Positions 22,801-56,975 of a DNA stretch of 56,975 bases are shown here, in pieces. The notes under the pieces were generated by a model. The model was not told where the DNA came from, searched no databases, and worked only from the letters and a program-made list of their open reading frames with translations. Numbering within the stretch: position 1 is the first letter of the stretch; every line of letters starts with the position of its first letter. The stretch comes from a virus: IMG/VR virus record IMGVR_UViG_3300035533_000009, positions 1 through 56,975 of that record. The stretch is one strand, 5' to 3'. The position numbers and the translations under genes were made by a program.

Positions 22801-25800
22801 AAAGAGCCGCTTGCAGGCAACGGAGCGCAAGAACAAAAACCGAAACCTGAAGTTAGCAAGAACACAATATATACCGACGAGGCGGCAGAAAAGGCACGCG
22901 AGATAATCCGGGCGAGTTTGAGCAGGGTCAACGCAGGCATTGATCCAAAGCTGATGCAGGCGGGTATTACCCTTGCCGGATATCACATAGAGAAAGGCGC
23001 TCGCACGTTTGCAGCCTATGCCAAAGCCATGGTTGAGGATATGGGTGATATGGTCAGGCCGCACCTCAAGGCGTGGTACATGGCGGTGAAATATGAACCT
23101 TCTGCGGCAGAGATGCACGCAGATATGGATTCTGCTGCTACAGTTGAAAGTGCTGAAATTGACGATATACTGAAGGTAAATGGAGGTGAAGATGTCACTG
23201 ACGAGCGTACCCCAGGAAGTGTGGAACGAGATAGCCGAGACGCAGGAACTGGCGACGAAGTGGGCGCAAGAGGTGTTTCCCCTAACCGGGGAGTTCGCGA
23301 TAGCGCAACAGGAGGGCAAGGAGTACGAAGCTCTGCGGAACAAGGGGATAGCGCAGAAAATAGCGGCGGCGTACCTGGACGTGAAACCCCTGCTCCTGGA
23401 AAACGTGGCAATCAGCAGGCATATCCTGCAGACGGATCAGTTGCAGCTGCGCAGCGCACTCCCGGAGGTAACAACGGTGAGCGAGGCGGTGATGTTAGCT
23501 TCGTTGGATCGGCGGTTGACCCCGTTGCAACAGAAGCAGTTGGAGAAACTGCTACAAAAGGACGTGAGAAAGCTGAAACTGCGAAACAGCAGAAGCAAGC
23601 AGAGCACAAGCGCGTAAAACTCGCAGATCGCGAGAATATAGCCGAAACACTTCCCGCGTTGTATGAAGAACAGCAGGATGATGTGTACTTTGCCGAACAG
23701 CGATTCAGCAAGCCGAAAGGCACGGGGGTATTGTTTGCCAACGGTACAGGTACGGGTAAAACATTTACCGGCCTCGGTATTATCAAGCGCTTCTCTATGC
23801 GTGGCAAAGATAACGTCTTGATCGTGGTTCCGAACGCTAAACTTATAGATGACTGGATTGAATCCGGCAAAGCCCTCGGTCTTGATATAAAAAAACTCAA
23901 GGACACCAAGGACAGCGGCAACGGGATAGTTATTACCACGTATGCCAACATGGGCGCCAACAATTCACTAGCAGAGCGTGAATGGGATTTAGTGGTTCCC
24001 GACGAAGCAGACAACCTTATGAGCAACAAGGGTGGCAAGGAGACTTCCGCACTTGCAACCCTGAGAGCCATAACATCCAACCCGCGTGGCACCTATGACC
24101 GCTTCCGTATGCTGTATAGCGATAAGATAGCGGAACGGGATCAACTCAAAGAATCAATGCAGTCCAATCGTAGCCTCTATGCTCTGGACGATACCACGGA
24201 CATGCAACGGACCGACCTTGAAAAAGAGTACGCAGGGCTGAAAGAAGAGTACGATGCGCTGACAAAAGAACTCGACCAGGCTAACAACGAAATTGTTGAC
24301 CAGATAAAAAACATGCCCGACGAACAGCGCACCAGGGTTGCATTTCTGTCCGCCACCCCCATACCCTACGAAAAGAACGTGGACTATCTTGAGGGTTATC
24401 TGTTCGATTATCCCGAAGAGGGCTATATCGGCAACAGCCGCCAGGGTGGTTTTGAGAAGTTCATGGTTGAAAACTTCGGTTATCGTATCCGGTACCATAG
24501 GTTGAATGAGCCGGACAAGGAAGTAAACCGGGGGCTGATGCAGCGCATGTTCAACAAGCGCCTGCGTGAAGAAGGGGTTTTGTCTACGCGGATGCTCAGT
24601 GTAGATAAAGACTATGACCGCCGCTTTGTCCTCACCGAAAACGCCATTGGCAGCAAGATTGATGATGGCCTACAATTCTTGTGGGACAATGAGCAATACC
24701 GCCCGCTGGCTGACATTATCAATAAACGCTTTGACTATCTCTCCAGGCGATACCTACTTGAGGCTATCAAGGCGCGTGAATCTGTGCCCTTGATAAAAGA
24801 CCACTTGAGTAAGGGGCGCAAGGTTGTGGTTTTCCACGACTATAAAAAGGGCGGTGGTTTCAATCCATTTGACCTTGGGACTTTGCGCAACAGCAAAGAA
24901 GAAATAGCCAAGACTGATATGACCCTTGGCGACCTGGTGAAGCAGTTTGAGGCGGAGCGCCCGGACTTGCAGCAGATAGACTTTGAAGGGTTAAACTCTC
25001 CCGTGGCAACATTTAGCCAAGCGTTTGATGACGAACTCCTTATTGTGAACGGAGACTTCAAGGAGCGGGAAAATCTGGAATCGTTCAAGCGTTTCAACGA
25101 CGAGGATTCCGGGCCTATGGTAATGCTGGTGCAGTCTGCCAAAAACTCCGGCTGGAGTGGGCACGACACCACCGGCAAGTATCAGCGTGTAATGTTTAAC
25201 CTTGGCTTGCCGGAGCGCCCCACAATGGCAATCCAGCAAGAGGGCAGGATTTACCGCGTAGGGCAGGCGTCCAATGCGATATTCCGCTACTTGAATACGG
25301 GCACAAATTGGGAGCGCATTGCTTTTGCGCAAACCATAGCGCAGCGTTCATCAACAGCAGAAAACCTGGCAATGGGTGAAGAAGCCCGCGCCCTCATGGA
25401 TGGGTTCATTGAAGCGTTCGAGGAGTCCGACAGCTACCCGGCAGGACACCCTGGAGAGGGAACCGGCGGCAAGGAGCGCGACGCTGCGGCAAACGCGGCG
25501 CTGACCGAATGGGACCGCGCCATGTCGCTGTATTACTCCCAGCTCAAACGCAACAGTAAGAGCAAAGCACAAGAGGGCTTGGATTATTTCGCCACGCCAG
25601 AACCGCTCGGCCTGAAAATGGTTGAGTGGGCAGATGTTCGTGGCGGTGAAGATGTGCTTGAACCTTCAGCCGGACATGGCGCCATAGCCCGCTGGATACC
25701 CGAAAATGTAAACGCTACCATCGTTGAACCATCCCTTGAATTAAGCTCAAAGGTTCGCATGGTGGCCCAGGGCAAGCATATTACTGACACCTTTGAAAAT

Positions 25801-28800
25801 CTCCACAAGGTCAATAAGTACGACGCTATTGTTATGAACCCTCCATTTGGAAAAGGCGGAAAGACCGCAATAGAACATCTGGAGAAAGCAACCAACCATC
25901 TGCGCGACGGTGGCCGTGTTGTGGCAATTATCCCAACCGGTCCGGCAGCGGATAAGCGTTTTGACAACTGGTTCTATGCTGAAGATGAGAAGGGCAAGAG
26001 CCTTACACCAGACCTGAGTTTAAGGGCTGAAATAAGTCTGCCATCATCAACCTTTGAGCGTGCCGGAACATCGGTTAAGGCACGGATAGTTGTTATTGAC
26101 AAAGGTAGCGAATCAACCGAGACAGCTACCCGCGACTATTCAAGTGCCACTGGTGTTAAAGAGTTTTTCGAGCGCATAGAAGATTCCAGCATACCGGAAC
26201 GTACTAAGGCGGAACCAGCAGAAGAAGCTATCGCGCCCCAGGCGGAAGGGAGCGAAAGCGGTTTCAAACTCGCGCAAACCACTCACGCAAAAAAAGGCAT
26301 CGACCTCTATGTGGCAACAAACATTGAGCGTGTTCCGTATGAAGAATATAAACGACTCAACTCAATAGCGAAAAAGCACAACGGCTATTACTCCAAGTTT
26401 AGCCGCAACGGTGCAGTGCCGGGCTTCCAGTTTGAAAGCGAGCAGGACAGGGCAGAGTTTTTGAAAGAAGCCGGTCAAGAACAGTTGCAATCACGCTCGG
26501 CACAGAAAACCAACAACACCACCGCACAGGTAGAAAAAGAAGCTAAAGCCTTCCTCGGCAAAGGCTTCGAGCGCATGAAGAACGCGGGTAAACTGAAGGT
26601 GGTGCAGAGTGTGAAGGACTTGCCAAACGTGGCGCGTGGAATGTTTGCCGCTGCATGGCACGGGTCGCCCCACAGGTTTGATAAGTTCAGCACAGAAAAT
26701 ATCGGTACGGGTGAGGGAGCGCAGGCTTACGGGCATGGTCTTTATTTTGCGTCAAGCCGGAGGGTGGCGGAGTGGTATAAGGAAAAATTATCTGGGAAGC
26801 TTCCATACAAAACGCGAGTACGGTCTTACGAAGCGCCAGAAGGTGGGCGAGGCTGGCTGGTGGAAGTTTTTTCTAAGGATCGGCGCACTGGAGAGGATGA
26901 CAGGACTCCGTATTATTTAAAAAAAGACGCAGATTTGAAGGATTATTTATCTGACACTGACGCAAAGCGCCTGATTACTAGCGCGGAATCCCAAGGTGAC
27001 GTTGATGAAGTAATCCGCATCAGCAATGAAGGCAACCTCTACCAAGTCGAACTCGCACCAAAGGAAGATGAGTACCTTCTCTGGGACAGGCCGCTGAGTG
27101 AACAGAGCGAGAAGGTGAAGACGGCGCTGTCTGATGCTATGGGGCCGGGGATACTGAAAGACGGTTCAGGGCAAAATCTTTACAAACACCTTTCTGGCAA
27201 TATGTCGCTTGGGTCGCAACAAGCCGCCTCCGGATACCTCCACTCCCTCGGCATCCGTGGTATCAAGTATCTTGACGGGTCAAGCCGCAGCAAAGGTGAA
27301 GGCAACTACAACTATGTCATATTTAACGATGCTGATGTTGAAATTACCGCTCTCTACTCCAAGAACGGCGATATTGCCGGCGTCTACCAGGACGGCACTA
27401 TCTACCTCGTTGCAGATCAGATAGAGAAAGGTGAAACCGCCGGGCTGCTGAAACACGAAGGCTTGCACCTCCTGCTGCGTAACGACCCGGCCTTTAAGAA
27501 GCGCAAGGGCGAGATCATGCGCCAGTTTAAGAACCTCAAGAACACCCCCAAAGTGCGGGAAGCGTACAACTCCGTGCCGGAAGATACCGCTGCCAACGTG
27601 CGCGACGAGGAAGCACTGGCGTACCTGGTGCAGAACCACAAAGAGCACAGCCTGGTTAAGCGGATCATCTCAGCGGTGAAGGCATGGATGTTCCGCAACG
27701 GTATTCCGGTAACAAAGCTGACCGAAGGTGACTTGACCGCACTTGCGGCGCAGGGGATTAAGCGGTTCAGCAAGGCACAGACCATAGAGCAGGCTTTAGC
27801 GCAAGCAGACGCTATGGTAGGCAGCGAGCAACCCGTATTCTCCCGCAAGCGCACCAAGGGCACCGAAGCGCAGGAGAAAGCCCTGCGCGAGACACAGGCG
27901 GTCCCTAAAGATGAAATGTCCTGGCATGAGCGCGTGCAGGACTGGATGAAGGGGATCAGCGAAAACTTCAATAAAGAGAACATCCGCCAATCGGTATTTG
28001 ACGAATATGCCAGTGTAGAGAGAGCGGAAAAGCAGAAATACGGCAAACTTCTGGACGCTGACTTTTCCCCATCCAAGGCGTTACGTGCTACCAAGAACCT
28101 TGATTCCGTTATGGCGGCAATCTTCATGAAGGGCAAGATACGCCGGAACAAGAACGGCTGGGTTGAGCTTGTTGACCCAAAAAACGGCAAAGGGTTCCTG
28201 CAAATCTTTGAACCCTTGTTTCAGTACGAGGGCGGATCGCTTACGCGCCTGTGGGAAGGTTACGCCGGGGCGCGACGTGCCAAGGAGTTGAAAGCGCAGA
28301 ACCGCGAGAACAACTACAGTGACGAGCAGATAAAGGAACTGCTGAAACTCGAACGAGAATACGACGGTACAAACGGAAAGCCGGACTTCAAGGCGATATT
28401 TGACGAATATCAGGCGTTCAATAAATCCATCCTGGACTTTGCCGAATCAGCAGGAGTAATTGACCCGGAAAGCCGCAAGTTGTGGGAGAGCAACGACTAT
28501 ATCCCCATGTACCGTATCCTCGACGACATGGACGACGCCAAGGGGCCGATGAAAAAAGGCGGCGTAGCAAGCCAGACAAGCGGAATACGCAAGCTCAAGG
28601 GCGGTGTAAGTAAACACGGCGGCGTACTGGAAAACATGGTAATGAACATGACCAAGCTGGTGGACGCCAGTTATAAGAACATCGCTGCTGAACGCGCCAT
28701 TGACCTGGGGCTTGAAACTGGGCACGCGGAAGCGGTGGCAGGATCGGCTGCGAACATGGAAGAGGAGCAGATACGCGAGTACGTCAACGGTGTAGGCCTC

Positions 28801-30501
28801 GACTACGACGCTATGGACGAAGGACAGCAGGAAGCATGGCGCAAGACCCTGCGTAAATTCAGCCCTGAAGGCGGGGATATTGTTCATATTCTCAAAGATG
28901 GGAAGCGCAAATACTACCGCGTGAACGACCCCCTCTTCCTGCGCAGCTTGCAGAGCGTAGGCGGCACGGATAGCAACGTATTAAAGCTGTTCCGTATGTC
29001 TAAAAGCCTGCTGACCAACACCGTTACGGCTAACCCTTCGTTTATGTTGGCGAACTTTCTGCGTGACTCCATAAGCACGTGGATGGTTACAGGTACAAAA
29101 ATGATACCGGTACTCTCCGGGATAAAGCAGGGCATGAAGGCGTGGAACGAGGACACGATGCTCTGGCAGATGATGGCAGCCGGTGCCGGGGGTGGGCGCT
29201 TCTACAACACCCGCTCCAAAGATGTGCGCAAGATGGCGAACCAGATCGAAAAGAAAATGAAAGATAAAAACTTCTCCGAGACGGTGCTGGATTCCCCGGG
29301 TAAAATCTGGCAGTTCTGGCAGAAGATGGGCAACGCCTCCGAGAATGCAAACCGTCTGGCAGTCATGCAGGATTATCTCAACCGGGGATACACCCAGACA
29401 GAGGCCGCATATCAGGCAATGGACGTAATGAACTTCACCCGCCACGGTGACGGGGTGATAATGAAGTTTATGATGGATACCGTACCCTTCTTGAACGCAC
29501 GTATTCAGGGCCTGGACCGCTTATACCGTGGGGCAAAGGAGAACCCCGGCACATTTGCTATACGGGGTGCAATGTTGGGCATGGCTTCCCTGGCGCTGTA
29601 CATGGCGAACAAAGATCGGGAAGAGTACGACGATCTCCCGGAGTGGGATAAAGATATTTACTGGCACTTTTTTACCCCGTTCGGACACTATCGTTTCCCG
29701 AAACCGTTTGAAGTTGGCGCAATCTTTGGTATGCTTCCAGAACGTATTGCTGAAGCGGTAAGCAAGGGCGAAACAAGGTTTCTCGCAGACGCCACAAAGC
29801 GGATGGTAATGGACACGTTCGCCTTCGATCCCATGCCGCAGTTGGTAAGACCGGCATACGAAATAGCCATAGACCGCAACCGGTTCTTTGATTCGCCCAT
29901 TGTCGGGTTCGATAAATACCTCGACCCGGAAGCACAGTACAACACCCGCACGCCGGTGAGTTATGTGAAACTCGCAGAAGCTATGCCTGATATAGCGCCG
30001 GACTTCCTGAGAAGCCCGAAACAGCTTGAACACTTAGTGCGGGGATACACATCTTCTGTCGGTTCAATCATGTTCTGGATGGCTGACCGGATGATGGAGC
30101 AGGCGGGGATGATCGATAAGAAAGAAACCATGCAGCTTACGGAGATGCCGGTGATAAAGCGCTTCTTCCGTGAGTATGACCCCAGAAGTGTAAAGTATTC
30201 CAGCTACTTTTACGATATGGTCAACGAGGCGGATCAGATATACAAGACCGTTAACAAGTACATGAAGTACGGACGCCGGGATGATGCCCGCGAACTTATA
30301 GACGACAACCGCGAACTGTTGCAGAAACGCAAAGGCCTGAACCGCTACAAGCGGCAAATATCCGAAATCAATCGCACAATGGATAAGATAGCCCGCTCAA
30401 GCCTTGCACCGGCAATAAAAGACGCACGCAACCGTAAGCTACAGCAGCAGAAAAACCAGCTGCAAAAGAGAGCCGTAGAGATCTACGGGGAAGGATTCTG
30501 A
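19837..30501 (+). CDS. Giant polyvalent (DarB-like) protein: SNF2-type helicase + N6-adenine DNA methyltransferase + PARP-like ADP-ribosyltransferase + HExxH metallopeptidase
   Basis: 3,554 codons, with a TTG start 8 nt after AGGAG. Motifs in order: GTGTGKT (23743), VVPDEADN (24001), QQEGRIYRVGQ (25234), LEPSAGHG (25657), NPPF (25837), AAWHGSPHRF...YGHGLYFAS (26650-26751), KHEGLH (27451). Confidence 0.9.
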   Translation: MDRLDSDFISEFDRAWQEVEAEEAEVKKRQNLPDPVRGLLGGIDTTQGLAYGTAALAGKALGSESLQDWGVEGYQRNMEESASYGESPEFGEDPLGWAGYNLGAVFPSMVEAAGGAAIGTMAAPGPGTAAGATAGRTILKKAIGKLSSDMVESYAKKHGREAVTKEIIDQATEQAQKATLKKLGGRAGAVGATLQMEAGGNFGEAVDVVGVDDASVTSAIATAIPSALVETAGGNIRILDKVLDSRYARMAKEGIQKNNPGIIARAITEGAKQAPAEAAQESFQELMSLSNLYMNDPTNEGLSAENVKSRLGESAGVGALAGGVFGGVTGAVSRGGTAQENISAKIAQAKQSVPKTGDPITDMTNEVQAETAALEQTATERWEGAWRGVAAQEDQRAKRARIRDSQFGDTIPGESVMQVSQRRNAGTGLLTTPERLLPYQEQVVAEQEPTVLPSDAPRSGYMSPEMFEQTGRMLPYSYRDNLSPEQQTERTNIALRERDRQQQSLTREQFQEAQKRVNQVDNYAQLRENTMRQIRNLERKKDLNKPQRNRLKRLQARFDRLTRVAPEKRTNADRVSKEGSKEFIPVMKRKEYRDILPEYVRQNVQTKDEMGMGSVVNADERGHFGQRTPSTNPAWAQDAIAVAGSVPKLRNAVEKAANGEPLGENQRIAVEIVADAYRDERNQGRVGEVLQRRTDTQNLVRTRQATKDKPSSQYLEMDEREQAVYDELDSETKTLHELTMQAYDVADENSVDALLESDLSDGEIAAELYNLIERKSNGRQSETGETTDRQAETAQGPEAGTTERDGTESAEGDVRQEVDPDQFPDATKMIETEQATEATAQPTADVAIEAGQGQRSESAAPDFEEMVKEAARWRGAALNHASNLDKKGKFKVSQRTTKGDLDEYLMRRYGIDETAARDVSNALTQRNVEDDRTADPADYDGEAWQQVGNPVASDETATQPDLPKERMKFVERKVFGEKEVTQPDEKPAKEPLAGNGAQEQKPKPEVSKNTIYTDEAAEKAREIIRASLSRVNAGIDPKLMQAGITLAGYHIEKGARTFAAYAKAMVEDMGDMVRPHLKAWYMAVKYEPSAAEMHADMDSAATVESAEIDDILKVNGGEDVTDERTPGSVERDSRDAGTGDEVGARGVSPNRGVRDSATGGQGVRSSAEQGDSAENSGGVPGRETPAPGKRGNQQAYPADGSVAAAQRTPGGNNGERGGDVSFVGSAVDPVATEAVGETATKGREKAETAKQQKQAEHKRVKLADRENIAETLPALYEEQQDDVYFAEQRFSKPKGTGVLFANGTGTGKTFTGLGIIKRFSMRGKDNVLIVVPNAKLIDDWIESGKALGLDIKKLKDTKDSGNGIVITTYANMGANNSLAEREWDLVVPDEADNLMSNKGGKETSALATLRAITSNPRGTYDRFRMLYSDKIAERDQLKESMQSNRSLYALDDTTDMQRTDLEKEYAGLKEEYDALTKELDQANNEIVDQIKNMPDEQRTRVAFLSATPIPYEKNVDYLEGYLFDYPEEGYIGNSRQGGFEKFMVENFGYRIRYHRLNEPDKEVNRGLMQRMFNKRLREEGVLSTRMLSVDKDYDRRFVLTENAIGSKIDDGLQFLWDNEQYRPLADIINKRFDYLSRRYLLEAIKARESVPLIKDHLSKGRKVVVFHDYKKGGGFNPFDLGTLRNSKEEIAKTDMTLGDLVKQFEAERPDLQQIDFEGLNSPVATFSQAFDDELLIVNGDFKERENLESFKRFNDEDSGPMVMLVQSAKNSGWSGHDTTGKYQRVMFNLGLPERPTMAIQQEGRIYRVGQASNAIFRYLNTGTNWERIAFAQTIAQRSSTAENLAMGEEARALMDGFIEAFEESDSYPAGHPGEGTGGKERDAAANAALTEWDRAMSLYYSQLKRNSKSKAQEGLDYFATPEPLGLKMVEWADVRGGEDVLEPSAGHGAIARWIPENVNATIVEPSLELSSKVRMVAQGKHITDTFENLHKVNKYDAIVMNPPFGKGGKTAIEHLEKATNHLRDGGRVVAIIPTGPAADKRFDNWFYAEDEKGKSLTPDLSLRAEISLPSSTFERAGTSVKARIVVIDKGSESTETATRDYSSATGVKEFFERIEDSSIPERTKAEPAEEAIAPQAEGSESGFKLAQTTHAKKGIDLYVATNIERVPYEEYKRLNSIAKKHNGYYSKFSRNGAVPGFQFESEQDRAEFLKEAGQEQLQSRSAQKTNNTTAQVEKEAKAFLGKGFERMKNAGKLKVVQSVKDLPNVARGMFAAAWHGSPHRFDKFSTENIGTGEGAQAYGHGLYFASSRRVAEWYKEKLSGKLPYKTRVRSYEAPEGGRGWLVEVFSKDRRTGEDDRTPYYLKKDADLKDYLSDTDAKRLITSAESQGDVDEVIRISNEGNLYQVELAPKEDEYLLWDRPLSEQSEKVKTALSDAMGPGILKDGSGQNLYKHLSGNMSLGSQQAASGYLHSLGIRGIKYLDGSSRSKGEGNYNYVIFNDADVEITALYSKNGDIAGVYQDGTIYLVADQIEKGETAGLLKHEGLHLLLRNDPAFKKRKGEIMRQFKNLKNTPKVREAYNSVPEDTAANVRDEEALAYLVQNHKEHSLVKRIISAVKAWMFRNGIPVTKLTEGDLTALAAQGIKRFSKAQTIEQALAQADAMVGSEQPVFSRKRTKGTEAQEKALRETQAVPKDEMSWHERVQDWMKGISENFNKENIRQSVFDEYASVERAEKQKYGKLLDADFSPSKALRATKNLDSVMAAIFMKGKIRRNKNGWVELVDPKNGKGFLQIFEPLFQYEGGSLTRLWEGYAGARRAKELKAQNRENNYSDEQIKELLKLEREYDGTNGKPDFKAIFDEYQAFNKSILDFAESAGVIDPESRKLWESNDYIPMYRILDDMDDAKGPMKKGGVASQTSGIRKLKGGVSKHGGVLENMVMNMTKLVDASYKNIAAERAIDLGLETGHAEAVAGSAANMEEEQIREYVNGVGLDYDAMDEGQQEAWRKTLRKFSPEGGDIVHILKDGKRKYYRVNDPLFLRSLQSVGGTDSNVLKLFRMSKSLLTNTVTANPSFMLANFLRDSISTWMVTGTKMIPVLSGIKQGMKAWNEDTMLWQMMAAGAGGGRFYNTRSKDVRKMANQIEKKMKDKNFSETVLDSPGKIWQFWQKMGNASENANRLAVMQDYLNRGYTQTEAAYQAMDVMNFTRHGDGVIMKFMMDTVPFLNARIQGLDRLYRGAKENPGTFAIRGAMLGMASLALYMANKDREEYDDLPEWDKDIYWHFFTPFGHYRFPKPFEVGAIFGMLPERIAEAVSKGETRFLADATKRMVMDTFAFDPMPQLVRPAYEIAIDRNRFFDSPIVGFDKYLDPEAQYNTRTPVSYVKLAEAMPDIAPDFLRSPKQLEHLVRGYTSSVGSIMFWMADRMMEQAGMIDKKETMQLTEMPVIKRFFREYDPRSVKYSSYFYDMVNEADQIYKTVNKYMKYGRRDDARELIDDNRELLQKRKGLNRYKRQISEINRTMDKIARSSLAPAIKDARNRKLQQQKNQLQKRAVEIYGEGF

Positions 30502-49690: not shown

Positions 49691-49719
49691 TTGCACAAAT
49701 GCCTGAAATTTGGTAGTAT
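49691..49719 (+). promoter_or_regulatory. sigma70-like promoter TTGCAC-17 nt-TAGTAT abutting the left end of IS element 1
   Basis: Hexamers and a 17-nt spacer read directly. The predicted start site falls at about 49726, the IS boundary. Confidence 0.45.
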
Positions 49720-49726
49720 TATTGAT

Positions 49727-51100
49727 CCAATGCGCGTCAAACCTCGCCCTTCAGGGCGAGGAAGGATAGCGCGAACCGCGAAGGGTTTTTGTTTGACAGG
49801 GTATAAATAAGGTGTTAAACTATGTGGCATGAATACCGTACAGCGTGCCTACAAATACCGCTTCTATCCGACGCCCGAGCAGGCCGAACAGCTTGCGCGG
49901 ACGTTTGGCTGTACGCGCTTCGTCTACAACCACTTCCTGCGGGTACGCATCGACGCCTGGTACGAGCACCAGCAGCGGGTCGGATACAACGACACTGCCA
50001 AGCAGCTTACCGAACTGAAAAAGCAGCCGGAAACGTTGTGGCTTCAGGATGTGTCGAACGTCTGCCTTCAGCAGTCGCTGCGCAACCTCGACGCGGCGTT
50101 CAGGAACTTCTTTCAGGGTCGTGCCAAGTACCCGACCTTCAAGAAGAAGCATGCGCGTCAGTCGGTCCGCTACACGACCAACGGTTTTTCGTACCGCGAC
50201 GGGCAGATCAAGCTGGCCAAGCACAAGGAACCGCTGAACATTCGCTGGAGCCGTCGTTTCACCGGGACGCCATCCAATGTCACTGTGAGCAAGGACAGCG
50301 CAGGCCGCTATCACATATCTATCCTCGTCGAGGAAGCAATAGAGGCGCTGCCGATCAGCCGGAAGGAGTGCGGCATCGACCTTGGCCTCACGCACGCGGT
50401 CATTACAAGCAACGGACGCAAGGTCAACAATCACCAATATATCAAGCAATCCGAGAAAAAACTGGCTCGCGCCCAGCGCCGCCTGTCACGCAAGAAGAAG
50501 GGGTCAGCCAACCGCGCCAAGGCAAAACTCAAGGTTGCACGTATCCACGCCAGGATCGCCGACCAGCGTCGAGACTTCGCGCACAAGCTAACCACGCAGC
50601 TAATTCGCGAGAACCAAGTAGTGGCTGCGGAAAGCCTGCAAGTGAAGAATATGCTCAAGAATCGCTCGCTGGCGAAAGCCATCAGCAACGTGGGGTGGCA
50701 TCAGCTCACCACTATGCTTGCGTACAAGGCGCAATGGTACGGGCGAGACTTTATTCAGATCGACAAGTTCTACCCGTCGAGCAAGCGTTGCCATGTCTGC
50801 GGTCACATTTCCGACGCGATGCCACTATCGGTCAGACATTGGGACTGCCCAGCCTGCGGCTCCCATCACGACCGCGACGTCAACGCTGCGAAGAACATCC
50901 TCGAGGCAGGCAAGGCCATCATGGCCGGTGCCGACAAGCTGCGAGAGCACGAGAAAACTACCGTGGGGCGCACGGGAGGTTAAGCCTGTGGAGTCTGTGT
51001 CAGCCTCTGAGGGCAATCCCAAGGAGCAACGGACTATGAAGCAGGAACCTGGAAGGCGACAACCAGGAATCCCCTTCCTTCAGGGAGGGGAGGACGTCAA
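49727..51100 (+). mobile_element. TnpB-only IS200/IS605-family element 1 (no tnpA)
   Basis: The LE hairpin CCTCGCCC-TTCA-GGGCGAGG (49742-61) lies 15 nt after TTGAT (49722-26). The RE hairpin CCCCTTCC-TTCA-GGGAGGGG (51071-90) is followed by 10 nt ending in TCAA. The last 36 nt are identical to element 2. Confidence 0.8.
49829..50983 (+). CDS. tnpB: TnpB RNA-guided nuclease (IS605 OrfB family)
   Basis: YKYRFYPTPEQ N-terminus; RuvC residues in GIDLGLTH, VAAESLQVKNM and HDRDVNAAKNI; zinc ribbon CHVCGH...CPACG. Confidence 0.9.
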   Translation: MNTVQRAYKYRFYPTPEQAEQLARTFGCTRFVYNHFLRVRIDAWYEHQQRVGYNDTAKQLTELKKQPETLWLQDVSNVCLQQSLRNLDAAFRNFFQGRAKYPTFKKKHARQSVRYTTNGFSYRDGQIKLAKHKEPLNIRWSRRFTGTPSNVTVSKDSAGRYHISILVEEAIEALPISRKECGIDLGLTHAVITSNGRKVNNHQYIKQSEKKLARAQRRLSRKKKGSANRAKAKLKVARIHARIADQRRDFAHKLTTQLIRENQVVAAESLQVKNMLKNRSLAKAISNVGWHQLTTMLAYKAQWYGRDFIQIDKFYPSSKRCHVCGHISDAMPLSVRHWDCPACGSHHDRDVNAAKNILEAGKAIMAGADKLREHEKTTVGRTGG

Positions 51101-51140
51101 GTGTGGCCCTTCTTCTCTTGGACATACACCTCCTTTCTTG

Positions 51141-51165
51141 CCCCCTCGAAAGAGGGGGACTTTTT
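51141..51165. terminator. Intrinsic terminator (+ strand T-run) between IS element 1 and the end of the minus-strand operon
   Basis: CCCCCTC-GAAA-GAGGGGG followed by ACTTTTT. Confidence 0.6.
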
Positions 51166-51170
51166 AAGGA

Positions 51171-51593
51171 CTATTCGGAGAGGCGGGCACCGCATGTTTC
51201 CAACACCTCGCGGTATTCGGTGACGATCCCGTGGGGCTGCCAGAAGCGGTAAGCGACGTCCTGGATCGCGATTTTACTCGCAAGGGGGAGCGCATCTATG
51301 CTCCTTGCGAATGACTTGCTATAAACCCCCCACTTTTCGGCCAGCCCATCTTTTGTGCCGCACTCAGCGACATCGGCTTCCAGGTTATGGGCGTGGAGCC
51401 CTTCAAGTTCAACGCCATTGAGCATGTCCATCAAAAAGAGCCATTCGTTTTCCGTGAACTCAGGCATGGCATCCTTTATCATGCAGTCCCAATCCCGGAC
51501 GATGCCGGTCAGACGCCGGGAGAACGCTCCGGGTTCGTCGCACCCGATTATGGGCATGATTTCGTCGGATAAATAGATAGTTTTTCTGGGCAT
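51171..51593 (-). CDS. Hypothetical protein F of the minus-strand operon (140 aa)
   Basis: MPRKTIYLSDEIMPIIG... (possibly an RHH-like start). GGAG RBS directly after the upstream terminator. Met36 of the track ORF is used. Confidence 0.55.
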   Translation of the reverse strand: MPRKTIYLSDEIMPIIGCDEPGAFSRRLTGIVRDWDCMIKDAMPEFTENEWLFLMDMLNGVELEGLHAHNLEADVAECGTKDGLAEKWGVYSKSFARSIDALPLASKIAIQDVAYRFWQPHGIVTEYREVLETCGARLSE

Positions 51594-51605
51594 GTTATTT
51601 CTCCT

Positions 51606-51630
51606 ATAAAAAGCCCCTCCGAAGAGGGGC
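51606..51630 (-). terminator. Intra-operon intrinsic terminator/attenuator (minus strand)
   Basis: On the minus strand, GCCCCTC-TTCG-GAGGGGC followed by TTTTTAT. Confidence 0.55.
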
Positions 51631-51636
51631 GGGTAG

Positions 51637-51819
51637 CTATTCTTCGACTTCGACCGGACGAATTGTCCAGCCGTCACCCTCCGGGAAAACCGTGTCAACC
51701 GGCTTCCCGGCCTCCCCTTTGCGGGGAGATTCGGTTACTGTAACCCCTTCGTCAGATGAGAAAAACACGAGGCCCAGCGGCCCCGCTGCAACTTCAATAA
51801 ACGCTTCAAACTTTTCCAT
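51637..51819 (-). CDS. Hypothetical protein E (60 aa)
   Basis: MEKFEAFIEVAAGPLGLVFFSSDEG.... GGAG lies 7 nt before ATG 51819. Confidence 0.5.
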   Translation of the reverse strand: MEKFEAFIEVAAGPLGLVFFSSDEGVTVTESPRKGEAGKPVDTVFPEGDGWTIRPVEVEE

Positions 51820-51872
51820 GGTCATTCTCCTTTCTGTTTATTGCCCCGACCGGAGCCGGGGCGGTGAATGGT

Positions 51873-52646
51873 TTATAACGCAGCGGCTACAACTTCTACC
51901 GGCTTCATCCTGGTGGCGCAGCGTTTGCCGGAAGCGCAGATTTGATATTCACAACCGCTGACCTCGACCTTGACTATCATCAGGTTGGTGTGTTCCCGCG
52001 CTGGGCCAAAGATGTTGTTTGCGCGGGCTGCCTCCAGTACTTCATCCATTGAGCGGTAGTAGTAGAATCCGCCGGTGTGGTCATCAGTGGCTTTTTCTAC
52101 GCGGGTTTTGCCAAGCGGCCATTCTGATCCATCCCAGCAGCTGACCAGGTTGCCGGATTCGTCGATGGTGAGGGCTTTGTATCCCTCGCGTTTTACCTGG
52201 GCTTTTGTTCTGAGCTGTTCTTTGCCTGTTACTACTGCAATGGCGTACCCGAGGAGGTTCCCGCCGGCCTTGGCAGCTTTGGCGGCTACCGATTTTTTGG
52301 CAGGCTCCACGATAGTGCCGTTGCCGTGCTTTTTAATCAGATAGTAGTCTTTTTTTACTGTTTTGATTCCGTAGCGCGTTCCCTCTGCTTCGCGGCAGCA
52401 GACCAGAACAGCTTTGCCGTTGGGGGCTATGTCGTAGATTTCGTGATGGATGGCGGTACCGATCCGCTTGTTGCCGATGCGAGAGTTTACGCGCTCCCAT
52501 GTCATGTTGTCGTAGGCCTGGGGGATTCTCTTTTTGCTGGCCGCTTTTGATACCAGTTCGCGAGCCTGCTCAAGCAGGTTTGATTCTGTGTTCAGGTTGA
52601 TGATTTCGCCATACTCGCTGCGGGTCATAGTTGCTACGGTCATCAT
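51873..52646 (-). CDS. Hypothetical protein D (257 aa)
   Basis: AAAGGAG RBS 7 nt before the ATG. No motif recognised. Confidence 0.6.
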   Translation of the reverse strand: MMTVATMTRSEYGEIINLNTESNLLEQARELVSKAASKKRIPQAYDNMTWERVNSRIGNKRIGTAIHHEIYDIAPNGKAVLVCCREAEGTRYGIKTVKKDYYLIKKHGNGTIVEPAKKSVAAKAAKAGGNLLGYAIAVVTGKEQLRTKAQVKREGYKALTIDESGNLVSCWDGSEWPLGKTRVEKATDDHTGGFYYYRSMDEVLEAARANNIFGPAREHTNLMIVKVEVSGCEYQICASGKRCATRMKPVEVVAAAL

Positions 52647-52652
52647 GATATT

Positions 52653-52730
52653 TCTCCTTTCGCCTCATCCGGCGTTTCAGGTAGAGGTTATCCTTCTTTC
52701 ACTTCATCCGATGGTTCAGGTAGAGGTTAT
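52653..52730 (-). repeat. Tandem ~39-bp leader repeat (two copies), with a third copy at 53707-53746
   Basis: On the minus strand: GATAACCTCTACCTGAA(A/C)C(G/A)(C/T)CGGATGA(G/A)G(C/T)GAAAG(G/A)AG. The proximal copy supplies the SD of gene D. The third copy supplies the SD of gene A. Confidence 0.8.
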
Positions 52731-52741
52731 TTTTATATTCA

Positions 52742-52924
52742 TTATTCTGCAGATAGTTTTTCGGCAAGAGCTATAGCCCAGTCCTCTGCCTCTGCCTTAC
52801 AAGGAAACCAATCGTGGTCTTCGTAATATTTGGGATCATTTACGCCAGTGCAGCATCCGATATTAGATACTGTTGCAAACCATGTGTTTTTGTCAGATTT
52901 GTATACGGTATAGTTAAATTTCAT
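52742..52924 (-). CDS. Hypothetical protein C (60 aa)
   Basis: MKFNYTVYKSDKNTWFATVSNIGCCTGVNDPKYYEDHDWFPCK.... ORF only. Confidence 0.45.
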   Translation of the reverse strand: MKFNYTVYKSDKNTWFATVSNIGCCTGVNDPKYYEDHDWFPCKAEAEDWAIALAEKLSAE

Positions 52925-52942
52925 GATTTTTCCTTTGGTTGT

Positions 52943-53004
52943 GCCCCTCCGGAGAGGGGCTGCATGTTCCCCTTTGGTTATGCCCCGACTATTTAAGCCG
53001 GGGC
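52943..53004 (-). repeat. Two tandem hairpin + A-rich + SD-like intercistronic units
   Basis: Hairpins GCCCCTC-CGGA-GAGGGGC (52943-60) and GCCCCG-11 nt-CGGGGC (52982-53004). On the minus strand each is followed by A(C/T)AACCAAAGG. A similar unit lies at 51843-62. Confidence 0.7.
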
Positions 53005-53022
53005 GAGATGTCCCATATCTTT

Positions 53023-53409
53023 TTAGGTCGTTCCTTCGACAAAGCCGATATGACGGAATACAGCCTTTTTTACTGTTTTCCCTTCAACAATCTCCTCAAC
53101 ACTCTCCCGCCGTGAAAAGGCGTAGAGCGGAGTGATTTTACTCTGAGCCAGTGCTCTTTCGAGCACCGGCATGAAGAACGGCGCGCCGCCGATCATGGCG
53201 CACCACTGGGCGTGATCCCCGCAGATGTGACAGTCAATCTCTCGATGGACTATCTCAACCAATTTCAAGGCGCGAGACTCCATCTCTTGATGAGATGGGA
53301 TTTCGTCAAAGGTGAGCAAGTTTTGCGCCTGCTTTTTCCCTTCCGGTTCCAGAACGCCCTGCTCAGGTGTTCCAGTATGTTGGGTCAGATTTACTATTAT
53401 TCTTTCCAT
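53023..53409 (-). CDS. Hypothetical protein B (128 aa)
   Basis: MERIIVNLTQHTGTPEQGV...CHICGDHAQWCAMIGGAPFFMP.... GGAG RBS. Looks like an alpha/beta fold family that I cannot name. Confidence 0.55.
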   Translation of the reverse strand: MERIIVNLTQHTGTPEQGVLEPEGKKQAQNLLTFDEIPSHQEMESRALKLVEIVHREIDCHICGDHAQWCAMIGGAPFFMPVLERALAQSKITPLYAFSRRESVEEIVEGKTVKKAVFRHIGFVEGTT

Positions 53410-53467
53410 GTTGTTCTCCTTCTGTTTAATAGATATGCTAATCAAAGCATACATATGCCCTTCAAGG

Positions 53468-53701
53468 TCAGATTATGGTCACTCTGGGACGGAACGCTCC
53501 GTCCTCCATACTAACTATGTTTTCCCAGTAGCCGAGAAGGTCGCCCTTGCGGGCTTGGAAGCTTTTCCCCAGAAGCTTAGGGAAGGTCGAGGCGGGGGCA
53601 TCCGCCTCTATTTTATAAAGGTCGTGAGCCGGGGTGTACAAGTACACCCCCAACTCAACTTCTTCAGTCCTTGCTTTCCTGAATCCTTTGTATACCAACA
53701 T
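53468..53701 (-). CDS. Hypothetical protein A (77 aa), first gene of the minus-strand operon
   Basis: GGAGG lies 5 nt before ATG 53701 (Met8 of the track ORF). Confidence 0.5.
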   Translation of the reverse strand: MLVYKGFRKARTEEVELGVYLYTPAHDLYKIEADAPASTFPKLLGKSFQARKGDLLGYWENIVSMEDGAFRPRVTII

Positions 53702-53775
53702 AACATCCTCCTTTCGCCCCATTCGGCGTTTCAGGTTGTGGGGATCGGCTTATCCGTTCCCCTGACTTGTGTGTA

Positions 53776-53803
53776 ATACTATCATACCATCATACATCGT
53801 CAA
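53776..53803 (-). promoter_or_regulatory. sigma70-like promoter TTGACG-16 nt-TAGTAT for the minus-strand operon
   Basis: The reverse complement of 53776-53803 reads TTGACGATGTATGATGGTATGATAGTAT, about 70 nt upstream of gene A. Confidence 0.5.
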
Positions 53804-53875
53804 GCCCTAAAAATGCTACTCAGTGCTTTTTCTTCGCAAGTGCCCGTAAATCTGAAAGAAAAAAATGTAAAAATA

Positions 53876-53904
53876 TTGATTGAGTTTCCACTGTGTAGTA
53901 AACT
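53876..53904 (+). promoter_or_regulatory. sigma70-like promoter TTGATT-17 nt-TAAACT, divergent from the minus-strand operon and reading into IS element 2 and terS
   Basis: Hexamers and a 17-nt spacer read directly. Confidence 0.4.
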
Positions 53905-53985
53905 GTGTATATGGGGTACTCAATATGCAAAGGCAGTTCAGGGCGTGTGCCGGGCTTTAGATAGCGCGTGCAGCGTAGGACTGAC

Positions 53986-55364
53986 CTTTTGCGCGGCAAG
54001 CCCCGTCGTTCACGGCGGGGAAGGATAGCGCGGACGGCGTAGCCGGCTTGTAAATTTGGGCTATTGCTTTTTTGTAAAGCTGTGAGAGCATCGAGACATG
54101 AAACGACTTCAAGCCTTTAAATACGCATTGGTTTCAGACGGTCAGCAAGAGCGGCAAATGCGCCGCTTTGCTGGATCGTGCCGGTTCGTATTTAACCGGG
54201 CACTGGCGTTGCAGAAGTCGCTTCATGAGCAGGGAGAGAAGAAGGTCGGCTACGCTGGGCTATGCAAACAACTCACCGAGTGGCGCAATAGCCCGGATAC
54301 CGCTTGGTTGGCGGAAGCGCCGGTTCATCCGCTCCAGCAATCACTCAAGGACCTGGAGCGGGCTTACGCCAACTTCTTCGCGGGTCGGGCGGCGTTCCCC
54401 CGGCGAAAAAAGAAAGGCCAGTGCGACAGATTTCGCTATCCCGACCCGAAACAGATCAAGCTCGACCAGGGCAACAGCCGTATCTTTCTTCCCAAGCTCG
54501 GTTGGCTGCGCTATCGCAATAGCCGCGAGGTCCTTGGGGACGTAAAGAACGTCACCGTCTCACAAAGAGCCGGTCGGTGGTTTGTCAGTATCCAGACCGA
54601 ACGGGAGGTTGCCGCTCCTATTCATCCGTCCGGCTCCACGGTCGGAATCGACATGGGAGTGGCCCGGTTCGCCACACTGTCGGACGGAACGGTAGTCGCC
54701 CCATTGAACAGCTTTAAAAAGCACCAACGGGCGCTTCGCAAAGCCCAGCAATCGCTTGCACGCAAAGTCAAACGCTCGAACAACTGGAAAAAGCAGAAAC
54801 GCAAAATTGCAAAGCTCCACGCCCGGATCGCCGATGTGCGTAACGACTTTCTTCACAAAACCAGCACCGCAATCAGCAAAAACCACGCGGTTGTCGTGCT
54901 GGAAGACTTGATCGTGAAGAATATGTCCGCATCAGCGAAAGGCACCGTGGAGCAGCCAGGCCGCAACGTCCGGCAAAAATCGGGACTCAACCGCTCCATT
55001 CTCGACCAGGGATGGTGCGAGTTTCGCCGGCAACTGGAGTACAAGCTGGCATGGGCGGGTGGATTGGTTATTGCCATACCGCCACGCAACACCAGCCGCA
55101 CCTGCCCGTGTTGCGGTCACATTTGCGCAGACAACCGCAAGACGCAGGCTGATTTCCTCTGCGTCCATTGCGGACACGCAGGAAATGCCGACCTGGTTGC
55201 GGCAATCAACATAAAAAGGGCAGGACATGCCCGGTTCGCCTGTGAAGTGAGTGGTGCAACAATGCCGCCAGCAGCAGGAACCCACCGAAGCGACTTCGGG
55301 TCAGCTCAATGCTGCGCCTTAGCGCCGTAGGAATCCCCTTCCTTCAGGGAGGGGAGGACGTCAA
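53986..55364 (+). mobile_element. TnpB-only IS200/IS605-family element 2 (no tnpA)
   Basis: The LE hairpin CCCCGTCG-TTCA-CGGCGGGG (54001-20) lies 15 nt after CTGAC (53981-85) and is followed by AAGGATAGCGCG, as in element 1. The 36-nt RE (55329-64) is identical to 51065-51100. Confidence 0.8.
54098..55330 (+). CDS. tnpB: TnpB RNA-guided nuclease (IS605 OrfB family), divergent second copy
   Basis: RuvC residues in VGIDMGVARF, VVLEDLIVKNM and GNADLVAAINI. Zinc ribbon CPCCGH...CVHCGH. Confidence 0.9.
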   Translation: MKRLQAFKYALVSDGQQERQMRRFAGSCRFVFNRALALQKSLHEQGEKKVGYAGLCKQLTEWRNSPDTAWLAEAPVHPLQQSLKDLERAYANFFAGRAAFPRRKKKGQCDRFRYPDPKQIKLDQGNSRIFLPKLGWLRYRNSREVLGDVKNVTVSQRAGRWFVSIQTEREVAAPIHPSGSTVGIDMGVARFATLSDGTVVAPLNSFKKHQRALRKAQQSLARKVKRSNNWKKQKRKIAKLHARIADVRNDFLHKTSTAISKNHAVVVLEDLIVKNMSASAKGTVEQPGRNVRQKSGLNRSILDQGWCEFRRQLEYKLAWAGGLVIAIPPRNTSRTCPCCGHICADNRKTQADFLCVHCGHAGNADLVAAINIKRAGHARFACEVSGATMPPAAGTHRSDFGSAQCCALAP

Positions 55365-55504
55365 TGAGCCGAGAATCCCGCGCGGCTTTGATATGCGCTG
55401 TCCGGAGATGGGCGGCAAGGGGAATAACTATTTAAAACTATTGTGTCTGAGCAGGCAGCGGAACGGGTGTTTGTGTGCTGTGGGTCGGGCAGTAAGGGGT
55501 GGGC

Positions 55505-55712: not shown

Positions 55713-56240
55713 ATGGCAAGGCAGGTAAAGCTCACAGCAAAGCAGGAGGCATTTGTGCGCGAATACCTGGTTGATCTTAATGCAACGCAGGCGGCGATAC
55801 GGGCGGGGTATAAGGCGGTTAATGCGCATACAGTGGCTTCGCAAAACTTGGCAAAGCCATATGTAGCTGAGCGTATTCAGGAACTTATGGATGAGCGCTC
55901 AAAGAAAACCGAGATAACCGCTGAAAGGGTCTTGGAGGAGTTAGCCAAGATGGCTTTCGCGAACATTGCAAATATCTACGATGACCAGGGTAGGCTGCTC
56001 CCGGTGAAGGAGATGCCAGAAGATGTGGCGGCGTGTCTCCAGGAAGTAACCGAGGGTGTGGATCGGAACGGCGATGTGCAGCGCAAGTACAAGATGGCAG
56101 ACAAAAAATCCACGCTGGAGTTGCTGGGCAAACACCTGAAACTCTTTACCGATAAAACCGAGGTAACAGGCAAGGACGGGGAACAGCTCATGCCGACGAC
56201 AGTACAGCTTGTGGCACCGAAGGGGTCTGGCAGCAAGTGA
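55713..56240 (+). CDS. terS: Terminase small subunit (Terminase_2 / P27-type)
   Basis: LTAKQEAFVREYLVDLNATQAAIRAGY...AKPYVAERI is the typical small-terminase HTH N-terminus. Overlaps the terL start. Confidence 0.85.
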   Translation: MARQVKLTAKQEAFVREYLVDLNATQAAIRAGYKAVNAHTVASQNLAKPYVAERIQELMDERSKKTEITAERVLEELAKMAFANIANIYDDQGRLLPVKEMPEDVAACLQEVTEGVDRNGDVQRKYKMADKKSTLELLGKHLKLFTDKTEVTGKDGEQLMPTTVQLVAPKGSGSK

Positions 56241-56975
56241 GCGAGGTCGCGAATATAGAGCTGCCGCCTAAGCTGATCCCGGTGTTTACGGGGGAGGCAA
56301 GCTACAGGGGTGCATACGGAGGCCGGGGCAGTGCCAAAACAAGATCGTTTGCGCTTATGTCCGCCGTAAAGGGCTATGCGCTGGCAGAAGCAGGGCGCAC
56401 AGGCGTCATCCTGGCAGGGCGTGAGCTGATGAACTCGCTCGATGACTCGTCGATGGAAGAGATCAAGCAGGCCATAAGGTCTGTGCCCTGGCTTGAGGCG
56501 TACTATGAAATCGGCGAAAAGTATATACGCACGAAGAACCGGCGCATTAAATACGTATTTAGCGGTCTGCGGCACAACCTCGACAGTGTGAAGTCCAAGG
56601 CGCGGATACTGTTGGCATGGATTGATGAGGCGGAGCAGGTAACGGATGAGGCGTGGCGCAAGTTAATCCCAACTGTTCGCGAAGATGGCTCCGAGATATG
56701 GGTGACGTGGAACCCTGAGACTGATGGTAGCCCGACAGACCAGCGTTTTCTGAAGCATCCGCCGAAAAATGCCAAGATCGTCGAGATGAACCACCGGGAC
56801 AACCCGTGGTTCACTGCACGTCTGGAAGAGGAGCGGCAAAACGATATAGCCCGCGACCCGGTAATGGCTGCCCACATATGGGAGGGCGAGTACCTTGAGT
56901 ATGTGGATGGGGCCATTTATGCGCGAGAGCTGCAACAGGCGCGGGAGGCGGGCAGGATAACCTCAATCCCCATCG
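56237..56975 (+). CDS. terL: Terminase large subunit, N-terminal (ATPase) part; runs off the window end and continues at nt 128
   Basis: GTG 56237 (GTGA overlap with terS). Walker A YGGRGSAKT and Walker B LLAWIDEAE. In frame with ORF 16..681 through the 127-bp repeat. Confidence 0.85.
   Translation, partial: MSEVANIELPPKLIPVFTGEASYRGAYGGRGSAKTRSFALMSAVKGYALAEAGRTGVILAGRELMNSLDDSSMEEIKQAIRSVPWLEAYYEIGEKYIRTKNRRIKYVFSGLRHNLDSVKSKARILLAWIDEAEQVTDEAWRKLIPTVREDGSEIWVTWNPETDGSPTDQRFLKHPPKNAKIVEMNHRDNPWFTARLEEERQNDIARDPVMAAHIWEGEYLEYVDGAIYARELQQAREAGRITSIPI
56849..56975. repeat. Second copy of the 127-bp terminal repeat
   Basis: Identical to nt 1-127. Confidence 0.95.

Follow-up and report, generated by a model that had tools for sequence, protein, structure and literature searches.

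The stretch of DNA analysed here is the whole of IMG/VR virus record IMGVR_UViG_3300035533_000009 (56,975 nucleotides, hereafter the window), a phage genome carrying two insertion-sequence elements, each with a left end (LE), an intact tnpB gene and a right end (RE), on either side of a minus-strand cassette of small genes. Instead of terminal inverted repeats, LE and RE have subterminal imperfect hairpins with 8-bp stems and TTCA loops, with covariation of the stems among relatives. The 3′ part of each element, structured and overlapping the end of tnpB, would provide the omega-RNA scaffold and leads into an RE hairpin followed by the terminal TCAA. From these ends, the Pfam domains and the catalytic residues of the two proteins, both elements can be classed as TnpB-only, IS1341-like non-autonomous members of the IS200/IS605 family, as had been proposed from an inspection of the letters alone (the sequence-only reading). 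We consider it very probable that they represent two independent non-autonomous IS200/IS605 insertions, at 49727-51100 and 53986-55364. Their features are collected in Table 1; contigs and loci used for comparison carry L numbers.

Table 1. Features of the region holding the two elements, in order of position. Sites 1 and 2 are the insertion sites of elements 1 and 2; TAM, target-adjacent motif; ORF, open reading frame; reRNA, right-end element RNA.
Feature	Position	Strand	Remarks
sigma70-like promoter, TTGCAC-17-TAGTAT	49691..49719	+	Upstream of site 1; 100% identical in occupied and empty relatives
TTGAT, target/TAM of element 1	49722..49726	+	Element 1 lies directly 3′; same TAM in the L011 and L083 copies
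Element 1 (LE, tnpB-1, putative omega-RNA region, RE)	49727..51100	+	Bounds from empty sites, the L011 copy and 91-93% copies
LE-1 hairpin, CCTCGCCC-TTCA-GGGCGAGG	49742..49761	+	Guide CAAA on 5′ side; AAGGATAGCGCG at 49762-49773
Promoter-like site in LE-1, TTGACA-17-TAAACT with TG	49793..49821	+	Directly upstream of tnpB-1; motif kept in L028
tnpB-1, 384 aa	49829..50983	+	RuvC D/E/D and zinc ribbon intact; full-length match to ISDra2 TnpB 8h1j, E = 6e-86
Putative omega-RNA scaffold, element 1	50921..51100	+	Overlaps tnpB-1 3′ end and RE; RNAalifold
RE-1 36-mer	51065..51100	+	GAAT guide, 8-bp hairpin 51071-51090 (TTCA loop), then 10 nt ending TCAA
Predicted guide/target, element 1 (GTGTGGCCCTTCTTCTCTTG)	51101..51120	+	By analogy with ISDra2 reRNA (PMC8612924); identical in empty sites
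Accessory cassette, six ORFs (141, 62, 257, 60, 129, 84 aa)	51171..53722	-	No informative family
Promoter-like site of cassette, TTGACG-16-TAGTAT	53776..53803	-	Region conserved in L007, L070, L086 and L087
Packaging-operon promoter, TTGATT-17-TAAACT	53876..53904	+	TTGACT-17-TAAAAT in L007/L070; 96-97% in L086-L088
CTGAC, target/TAM of element 2	53981..53985	+	Empty sites in L086-L088; plasmid-like copy L089 also after CTGAC
Element 2 (apparently tnpA-deleted, IS605-type)	53986..55364	+	Bounds from empty sites and a 92% copy with the same ends
LE-2 hairpin, CCCCGTCG-TTCA-CGGCGGGG	54001..54020	+	Guide CAAG on 5′ side; AAGGATAGCGCG at 54021-54032
tnpB-2, 410 aa	54098..55330	+	RuvC D/E/D and zinc ribbon intact; full-length match to ISDra2 TnpB, E = 1.5e-53
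Putative omega-RNA scaffold, element 2	55165..55364	+	Includes the RE-2 36-mer; RNAalifold
RE-2 36-mer	55329..55364	+	8-bp stem, TTCA loop, hairpin 55335-54, then 10 nt ending TCAA
Predicted guide/target, element 2 (TGAGCCGAGAATCCCGCGCG)	55365..55384	+	Identical in empty sites
Terminase small subunit (terS)	55713..56240	+	Pfam Terminase_2, 5.9e-43; first clear gene of the packaging operon

The two TnpB proteins have the lengths given by the sequence-only reading, which had judged them about one-third identical by eye; the measured value is 36% (BLASTP 1e-58). Both exceed the curated Pfam cut-offs for HTH_OrfB_IS605 (PF12323), OrfB_IS605 (PF01385) and Cas12f1-like_TNB (PF07282). The RuvC D/E/D motifs, which are GIDLG, AAESL and HDRDVNAA in TnpB-1 and GIDMG, VLEDL and GNADLVAA in TnpB-2, align with those of a solved TnpB-like nuclease, and two CxxC pairs are kept in each protein. 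The earlier statement that the catalytic residues and the zinc ribbon are preserved is borne out by alignment to solved TnpBs, and both ORFs are full length. Judged by their residues both proteins should be catalytically intact, and a nuclease role can be predicted for them by analogy. A third type of TnpB (377 aa) is encoded at another site in L087 (6921-8137), and also in L085, L086 and L088. It is 57% identical to TnpB-1 and 35% to TnpB-2, and its RE matches at 35 of 36 positions. Its carriers are close relatives without element 1, and L086-L088 also lack element 2. By this comparison no fewer than three TnpB lineages, all with the same type of end, are present in the phage group.

The 36-mer at the right ends, AGGAATCCCCTTCCTTCAGGGAGGGGAGGACGTCAA, is present exactly at both positions and has no other copy in the window; we estimate that an exact repeat of this length would occur by chance some 1e-13 times in 57 kb. 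It has the IS608-type geometry that had been read from the letters, and the LE hairpins, the shared AAGGATAGCGCG and the pentamers TTGAT and CTGAC lying 15 nt 5′ of the LE hairpins are likewise as described there. The two LEs are ~75-81% alike. The identity of the REs is no sign that the two copies are specially related, because the same 36-mer is common to several TnpB clades elsewhere. It occurs exactly in a Eubacteriales metagenome-assembled genome (MAG), where a tnpA-like ORF adjoins it, in a Burkholderiaceae MAG and in several viral contigs, and is found exactly or with 34-35 of 36 matches in several TnpB clades and taxa. Across ~45 related loci the RE consensus is AGGAATC-stem-TTYA-stem-GAGGAnGTCAA, and the changes in the stem are compensatory. 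The identity is best read as that of a strongly conserved end module of several TnpB lineages and not as a local duplication, and such a common module would be consistent with one TnpA type serving these lineages. Gene conversion between RE-1 and RE-2 had been suspected since IMG/VR relatives of TnpB-2 (75% aa identity) have a different stem; it is an unnecessary assumption, as closer relatives of TnpB-2, L084 (87% aa) and L089 (92% nt), share the stem with 34-35 of 36 matches.

The limits of both elements can be read from relatives in which the sites are empty. When IMG/VR was queried with the predicted junction ATTATTGAT/GTGTGGCCCTT (here and below a slash marks the junction) and with the right flank of element 1, four related phage contigs were retrieved, L085 to L088. 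At site 1, L085 and L086 read ...GGTAGTATTATTGAT/GTGTGGCCCTTCTTC... (core TATTATTGAT/GTGTGGCCC, i.e. TATTATTGAT/GTGTGG), and L087 and L088 have the same sequence except that TTGGT replaces TTGAT. At site 2, the sequence in L086, L087 and L088 is ...GTAGGACTGAC/TGAGCCGAGAATCCCGCGCGG... (core GGACTGAC/TGAGCCGAG; also GTAGGACTGAC/TGAGCCGAG). The empty sites TTGAT/GTGTGG and CTGAC/TGAGCC predicted by the sequence-only reading occur verbatim in these contigs. Element 1 fills site 1 in the window, L010 and L083, and L085-L088 have that site uninterrupted; at site 2, element 2 is present in the window and missing from L086-L088. Both insertions are seamless, without target duplication, and lie 3′ of an nTGAY motif, which is the TAM consensus over independent insertions. 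Homology among copies of the elements ends exactly at TCAA, and the right boundary is confirmed because the sequence following TCAA differs at every other locus with the same RE. Both insertion sites fall in scarce intergenic stretches, that of element 1 just after a conserved promoter and that of element 2 in the leader of the packaging operon, upstream of terS.

The sequence immediately upstream of element 2 was also considered as a remnant of a left end, given that 53960-79 resembles 54024-43. This was rejected, since the sequence is unchanged in the empty sites and is therefore native to the site. The resemblance extends over 53957-53980 (TAGATAGCGCGTGCAGCGTAGGAC), compared with the internal LE sequence GGATAGCGCGGACGGCGTAGCC (54023-54044), and its presence in the empty sites makes it older than element 2. 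It may be the relic of an older element or a coincidence.

Across independent insertions there is covariation between the final TAM base and the LE base adjoining the hairpin foot on its 5′ side, CAAA being found with TGAT and CAAG with TGAC, and the RE guide GAAT goes with TCAA throughout the compared loci. In IS608, guide tetranucleotides and cleavage sites follow a pairing rule. The LE covariation fits this rule, which by comparison implies that the two elements differ in target specificity, and the LEs look like real TnpA substrates. At one locus, L050 (~2484-2523), AAAG occurs with TTAC, giving a natural series of re-targeted LEs in one element family.

Near-identical copies of both elements lie elsewhere. 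A copy of element 1 that is 99.9% identical lies in different flanks in a second sample (L011, ...GGTCATACTATTGAT/...TCAA/AGAATTAATAATG), one of 99.8% is at the same site in L083, where the adjoining 141-aa gene is 76% identical, and copies of 91-93% follow ATGAT, TTGAT or GTGAT in other phage-like contexts. Element 2 is present at 92%, with the same LE/RE ends and the TAM CTGAC, on plasmid-like contigs of the Rep3/RepB-primase type (L089). Judged from these copies, each element is a mobile unit of its own, and the near-identical copies have recently relocated. The mobilising enzyme would have to come from outside. The sequence-only reading had found no tnpA, and probing all six frames of the window with two Y1 TnpA proteins from related loci and an IS608 sequence yielded, for any of the three, no match stronger than E ~0.1. 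The genome so searched is a circular assembly of ~56,848 bp, the ends of the contig overlapping exactly over 127 nt (1-127 = 56849-56975). In the absence of a tnpA from the genome, the elements must be mobilised in trans, and a candidate autonomous relative is L084, in which a divergent tnpA encoding a 121-aa Y1_Tnp protein lies between a 94.6%-identical LE and a tnpB whose product is 87% identical to TnpB-2; the RE matches at 34 of 36 positions. Because L084 holds tnpA between LE and tnpB, element 2 appears to be a tnpA-deleted derivative of an autonomous IS605-type element. Many viral loci of the TnpB-2 clade have kept tnpA, including L043 from a related phage.

Several further copies and remnants were seen in relatives. 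The element-1-like copy P0004 (L078 compared with L075-L082) has the same right flank and two left flanks (…CTACATTTTGAT/ versus …CACAGAGATGAT/), and by this comparison sits at a mosaic junction in the L075-L082 phage group. In the relatives L004 and L005 (terL ~60% aa) an RE of the element 1 type lies directly upstream of terS, a position like that of element 2; in L004 this is an 83-nt solo RE remnant without tnpB (2023-2105), and between L004 and L005 (1-116) the ~30 nt directly 3′ of the RE, the guide/target region, are inverted. The terS leader of L070 (reverse complement) has, relative to L007, an insertion of ~58 nt with GATTCCCCTGGCGGGGAGAAGTGTTGG at the leader position of element 2, and GATTCCCCTGGCGGGGAGAAGTGTTGG loosely resembles a degraded RE hairpin.

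A conserved fold spans the last ~180-200 nt of each element clade. RNAalifold found compensatory changes in 23 of 30 pairs for the element 1 clade (17 relatives) and in 22 of 34 pairs for that of element 2 (24 relatives), and we regard these regions as putative omega-RNA scaffolds. A covariance-model search, which the sequence-only reading had suggested, was carried out with Rfam and gave nothing at gathering thresholds. With reporting by E-value, HgcC was the only Rfam family at both REs, its plus-strand matches at 50991-51112 and 55216-55377 scoring a sub-threshold 22.9 and 20.3 bits (cut-off 50 bits) and reaching ~12 nt past TCAA. HgcC is described as an archaeal RNA of tnpB 3′ ends. The 16-20 nt that follow TCAA were taken as the predicted guides; they are matched exactly in relatives at the empty sites, and neither guide has a self-target in the window with <=2 mismatches.

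Both elements have the same orientation as the phage promoters upstream of them and are probably transcribed by read-through, to which the promoter-like site in LE-1 may add for element 1. These two sigma70-like phage promoters had been read from the letters; they are conserved in relatives, and both remain below the threshold of the consensus scanner. The intact site 1 (49691-49726 plus 51101-51170 in the window, contiguous in L085/L086 and at 904-1010 of L086) is an island 100% identical in all relatives, laid out as the promoter, ~65 nt and a strong plus-strand terminator (51141-51158 and a T run). Within the ~65 nt, CACCTCCTTTCTT is similar to the anti-Shine-Dalgarno sequence of 16S rRNA and shows complementarity to the AAAGGAG Shine-Dalgarno (SD) sequence of the cassette genes. 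On the minus strand the island has an SD and a 10-codon ORF. The island could encode a small regulatory RNA whose promoter was parted from its body by element 1.

We propose that the elements would be excised and inserted by TnpA acting in trans, supplied by an autonomous relative in the host, on a plasmid or in a co-infecting phage. TnpB with its omega-RNA would, by inference from ISDra2 and related work, recognise and cleave the empty site, made up of the TAM and ~16-20 nt of the right flank. By recombination with an occupied copy the element would be restored or spread, and cleavage of this kind may be what maintains or spreads the elements. Some points weigh against this account. The omega-RNAs and guides are derived from structure conservation and from ISDra2 (PMC8612924). 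A co-conversion signal could not be made out, since every allele, occupied or empty, has the same sequence (100% identity) over ~36-88 nt on the left side of site 1 and ~150 nt on its right side; a co-conversion signature suspected in L083 (element at 99.8%, neighbouring gene at 76%) was rejected when the empty alleles showed the same 100%-identical flanks. The polymorphism of occupied and empty sites would fit precise TnpA excision, homing or ordinary recombination equally well. Finally, the TnpA search rests on three probes, and a very divergent or different transposase stays formally possible.

The strongest alternative to independent TnpA-mediated insertion holds that the elements spread mainly by RNA-guided homing, in which TnpB and omega-RNA cut the empty site of a co-infecting relative and the element is copied in by recombination and not by TnpA. 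Occupied and empty alleles do exist at identical sites, and the empty allele combines the TAM with an exact match to the predicted guide. The distribution of element 1 cuts across backbone similarity: it is shared at 99.8% by two backbones with only 76% identity in the neighbouring gene, yet a backbone of 97.6% identity lacks it. Conserved arms flank site 1, the phage encodes a YqaJ-type recombination exonuclease, and non-restorative homing of transposons into co-infecting phages has been proposed conceptually ('transposon non-restorative homing', PMC13565253). The empty alleles of L087 (~5050-5056) and L088 (~2345-2351), which were independently assembled, have TTGGT at the TAM of element 1, and this is possibly an insertion- or cleavage-resistant TAM allele; the variant comes, however, from a single lineage. 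Against homing as the main route, the flanks are identical in all alleles, so that no co-conversion gradient can be seen, and the L011 and plasmid copies have been relocated to new sites with exact LE and RE, which needs TnpA. We think this alternative doubtful, though worth keeping in view.

In a related form of this idea, the TnpB-only elements would be RNA-guided homing cassettes that, much like free-standing homing endonucleases, cut the intact sites of co-infecting relatives and are copied in by phage recombination; lying on either side of a variable cassette, they may drag it along. TTGGT in two empty alleles and the presence of at least three TnpB clades with the same TnpA-type ends would fit, and we regard this version as rather unlikely. 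If it were true, elements that bracket a hypervariable cassette could bias its inheritance by recombination and be a functional analogue of a compound element.

The elements could also be inert passengers that are no longer mobile or functional, one old insertion each having been redistributed by ordinary mosaic phage recombination. The region is clearly mosaic, tnpA is missing, and remnants do occur in relatives, namely the 83-nt solo RE of L004 and an RE without a recognisable LE in Ralstonia phage Dimitile. On the other hand, both tnpB ORFs are full length with intact catalytic residues, both ends of each element are intact, copies at 99.8-99.9% lie in different flanks and backbones, and the empty sites are exact to the nucleotide, a result that recombination alone rarely produces. 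We consider inertness improbable.

The sequence-only reading had put forward a possible compound peel-and-paste element, in which TnpA acting on LE-1 and RE-2 would move a block of ~5.6 kb with the six-gene operon as one transposon. LE-1 and RE-2 do lie on the same strand in the correct order, and with identical REs and similar LEs the outer ends could in principle serve one and the same TnpA; no sign of such use was seen. In L086-L088, with both sites empty, the cassette promoter, the packaging promoter, the 141-aa gene and other small genes are present between the two precise empty sites and no IS605 ends are found. The sequence-only reading had itself named relatives of this kind as evidence against its model. 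Genes of 169 and 75 aa there replace the 62-, 257-, 60-, 129- and 84-aa genes of the window. The 141-aa gene is 97.6% identical at the nucleotide level in L087/L088 and 81.6% in L086, its protein being near-identical in L087. In L007 and L070, which are more distantly related, the genes of 257 and 141 aa are found with the same divergent promoter region and with terS, and element 2 is absent. The content of the cassette changes at ~51647 and ~53699, away from the IS ends. Either element can be found on its own at other places, bounded by the same LE and RE, and the whole 49727-55364 block was found at no other locus in the viral, genome and metagenome scans made, which gave single elements only. 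Moreover, the packaging-operon promoter lies inside the block, and excision would cripple the phage. A compound transposon is very improbable on this evidence, and the 2.9 kb between the elements read as ordinary variable phage backbone, not as transposon cargo. Because the REs are identical, a junction read GACGTCAA/CCAATGCGCG would fit an element-1 circle and a compound LE-1/RE-2 circle alike, and telling these apart needs more than 36 nt upstream, specific either to tnpB-1 (…GGAAGGCGACAACC) or to tnpB-2 (…GCCTTAGCGCCGT).

An assembly artefact, in which the identical 36-mers or the two elements would stem from mis-joined repeats, was a fair concern for a contig from a metagenome whose short-read unitigs break inside the 36-mer (L010), but it is next to impossible, since independent assemblies reproduce element 1 with the flanks of the window (L010 at 100%, L083) and the cassette (L008 at 100%), the 36-mer recurs in independent assemblies (L010, L011, L075-L082) and unrelated MAGs, unique sequence continuous with an intact ORF lies on either side of each 36-mer, and for each element both junctions agree with the empty sites of relatives.

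Searches with the six cassette proteins against PHROGs and Pfam returned nothing informative, and a metagenome scan with the 257-aa protein yielded short contigs only, including L070. A 39-nt repeat, CTCCTTTCGCC.CAT.CGGCGTTTCAGGT..., lies just upstream of minus-strand cassette genes at 52654-52692, 52693-52731 and 53708-53746, and is kept at the matching position in L007, L070 and L009. Possible readings are a common box of the 5′ untranslated region and SD, or a recombination boundary for swaps of cassette genes.

The gene set of the genome is that of a phage, with an SU10-type portal, a small terminase, the YqaJ-type exonuclease and a 3,554-aa polyvalent protein. The gene for the large terminase is divided between both contig ends. 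The 3,554-aa ORF (19837-30501) has ResIII helicase, methyltransferase, Sno-type helicase C and LPD38 domains; its product appears to be a polyvalent protein of the DarB type, probably injected. In the related phage L043 an IS605 element with tnpA and tnpB lies just downstream of the homologue of this ORF. By megablast against GenBank phages the backbone had no match, and tnpB-2 alone matched Ralstonia phages.

Movement of a phage operon by a compound single-strand transposon would have been a novelty, and the evidence goes against it. The value of the locus is that it offers a complete natural series, with boundaries exact to the nucleotide, occupied, empty and TAM-variant alleles, an autonomous relative with tnpA and a plasmid-borne near-copy. 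One genome holds two TnpB clades with different predicted TAMs (TGAT, TGAC) and near-identical ends. It could serve as a test bed for whether homing between co-infecting phages is driven by TnpB, which has mostly been a conceptual proposal until now, and for how TAM specificity and the TnpA guide tetranucleotide co-evolve, and it provides two candidate compact nucleases with defined putative omega-RNA regions, TAMs and natural targets.

Of the known systems, ISDra2 of Deinococcus radiodurans is closely similar. It inserts 3′ of TTGAT without duplication, and its TnpB works with a reRNA (PMC8612924). Both TnpBs of the window match the ISDra2 protein over the full length (Table 1), the insertions follow a TTGAT-type pentamer without duplication, and the predicted layout is also alike, with a guide taken from the flank after a structured RNA region that covers the RE and the 3′ end of tnpB. 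ISDra2 differs in having an overlapping co-directional tnpA, for which there is no counterpart here; element 2 uses CTGAC instead of TTGAT, the elements lie in a phage genome, and their activity is a prediction from sequence. IS608/IS605 of Helicobacter pylori, the peel-and-paste paradigm, shares the subterminal hairpins, and in IS608 the RE cleavage site is likewise reportedly TCAA, 10 nt 3′ of the hairpin, with GAAT 5′ of its foot. The pairing of guide tetranucleotide and cleavage site in IS608 is mirrored by the covariation seen here, the AAAG-TTAC combination of L050 being the same pair as in IS608, and the relative L084 resembles IS605 in having divergent tnpA and tnpB. Unlike IS608, where the LE target is TTAC at 19 nt from the hairpin, the LE target here is TGAY at 15 nt, and neither copy in the window has a tnpA.

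Phages are already known to carry TnpB-only IS605-family elements, with stand-alone tnpB and IS605-type ends in the IS1341-type/ISAba30-like elements of the Ralstonia phages Dimitile and Cimandef and of cyanophage A-1(L), whose tnpB has been reported (bioRxiv 10.64898/2026.02.14.705889). The Dimitile gene, annotated 'IS200/IS605 family transposase ISAba30', has 73.5% DNA identity to tnpB-2, and the RE matches at 30 of 36 positions. The window differs from these phages in holding two elements of different TnpB clades, both with intact ends and with matching empty sites in relatives. There is also a likeness to the free-standing homing endonucleases of T-even phages (Seg, Mob), where an intergenic nuclease gene that is polymorphic among relatives lies between conserved phage sequences, and the predicted target is the allele without the nuclease gene. 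In contrast to Seg and Mob, recognition here would be RNA-guided, through TAM and guide, and homing is a proposal; the elements of the window have transposon ends, and their copies have moved to unrelated sites.

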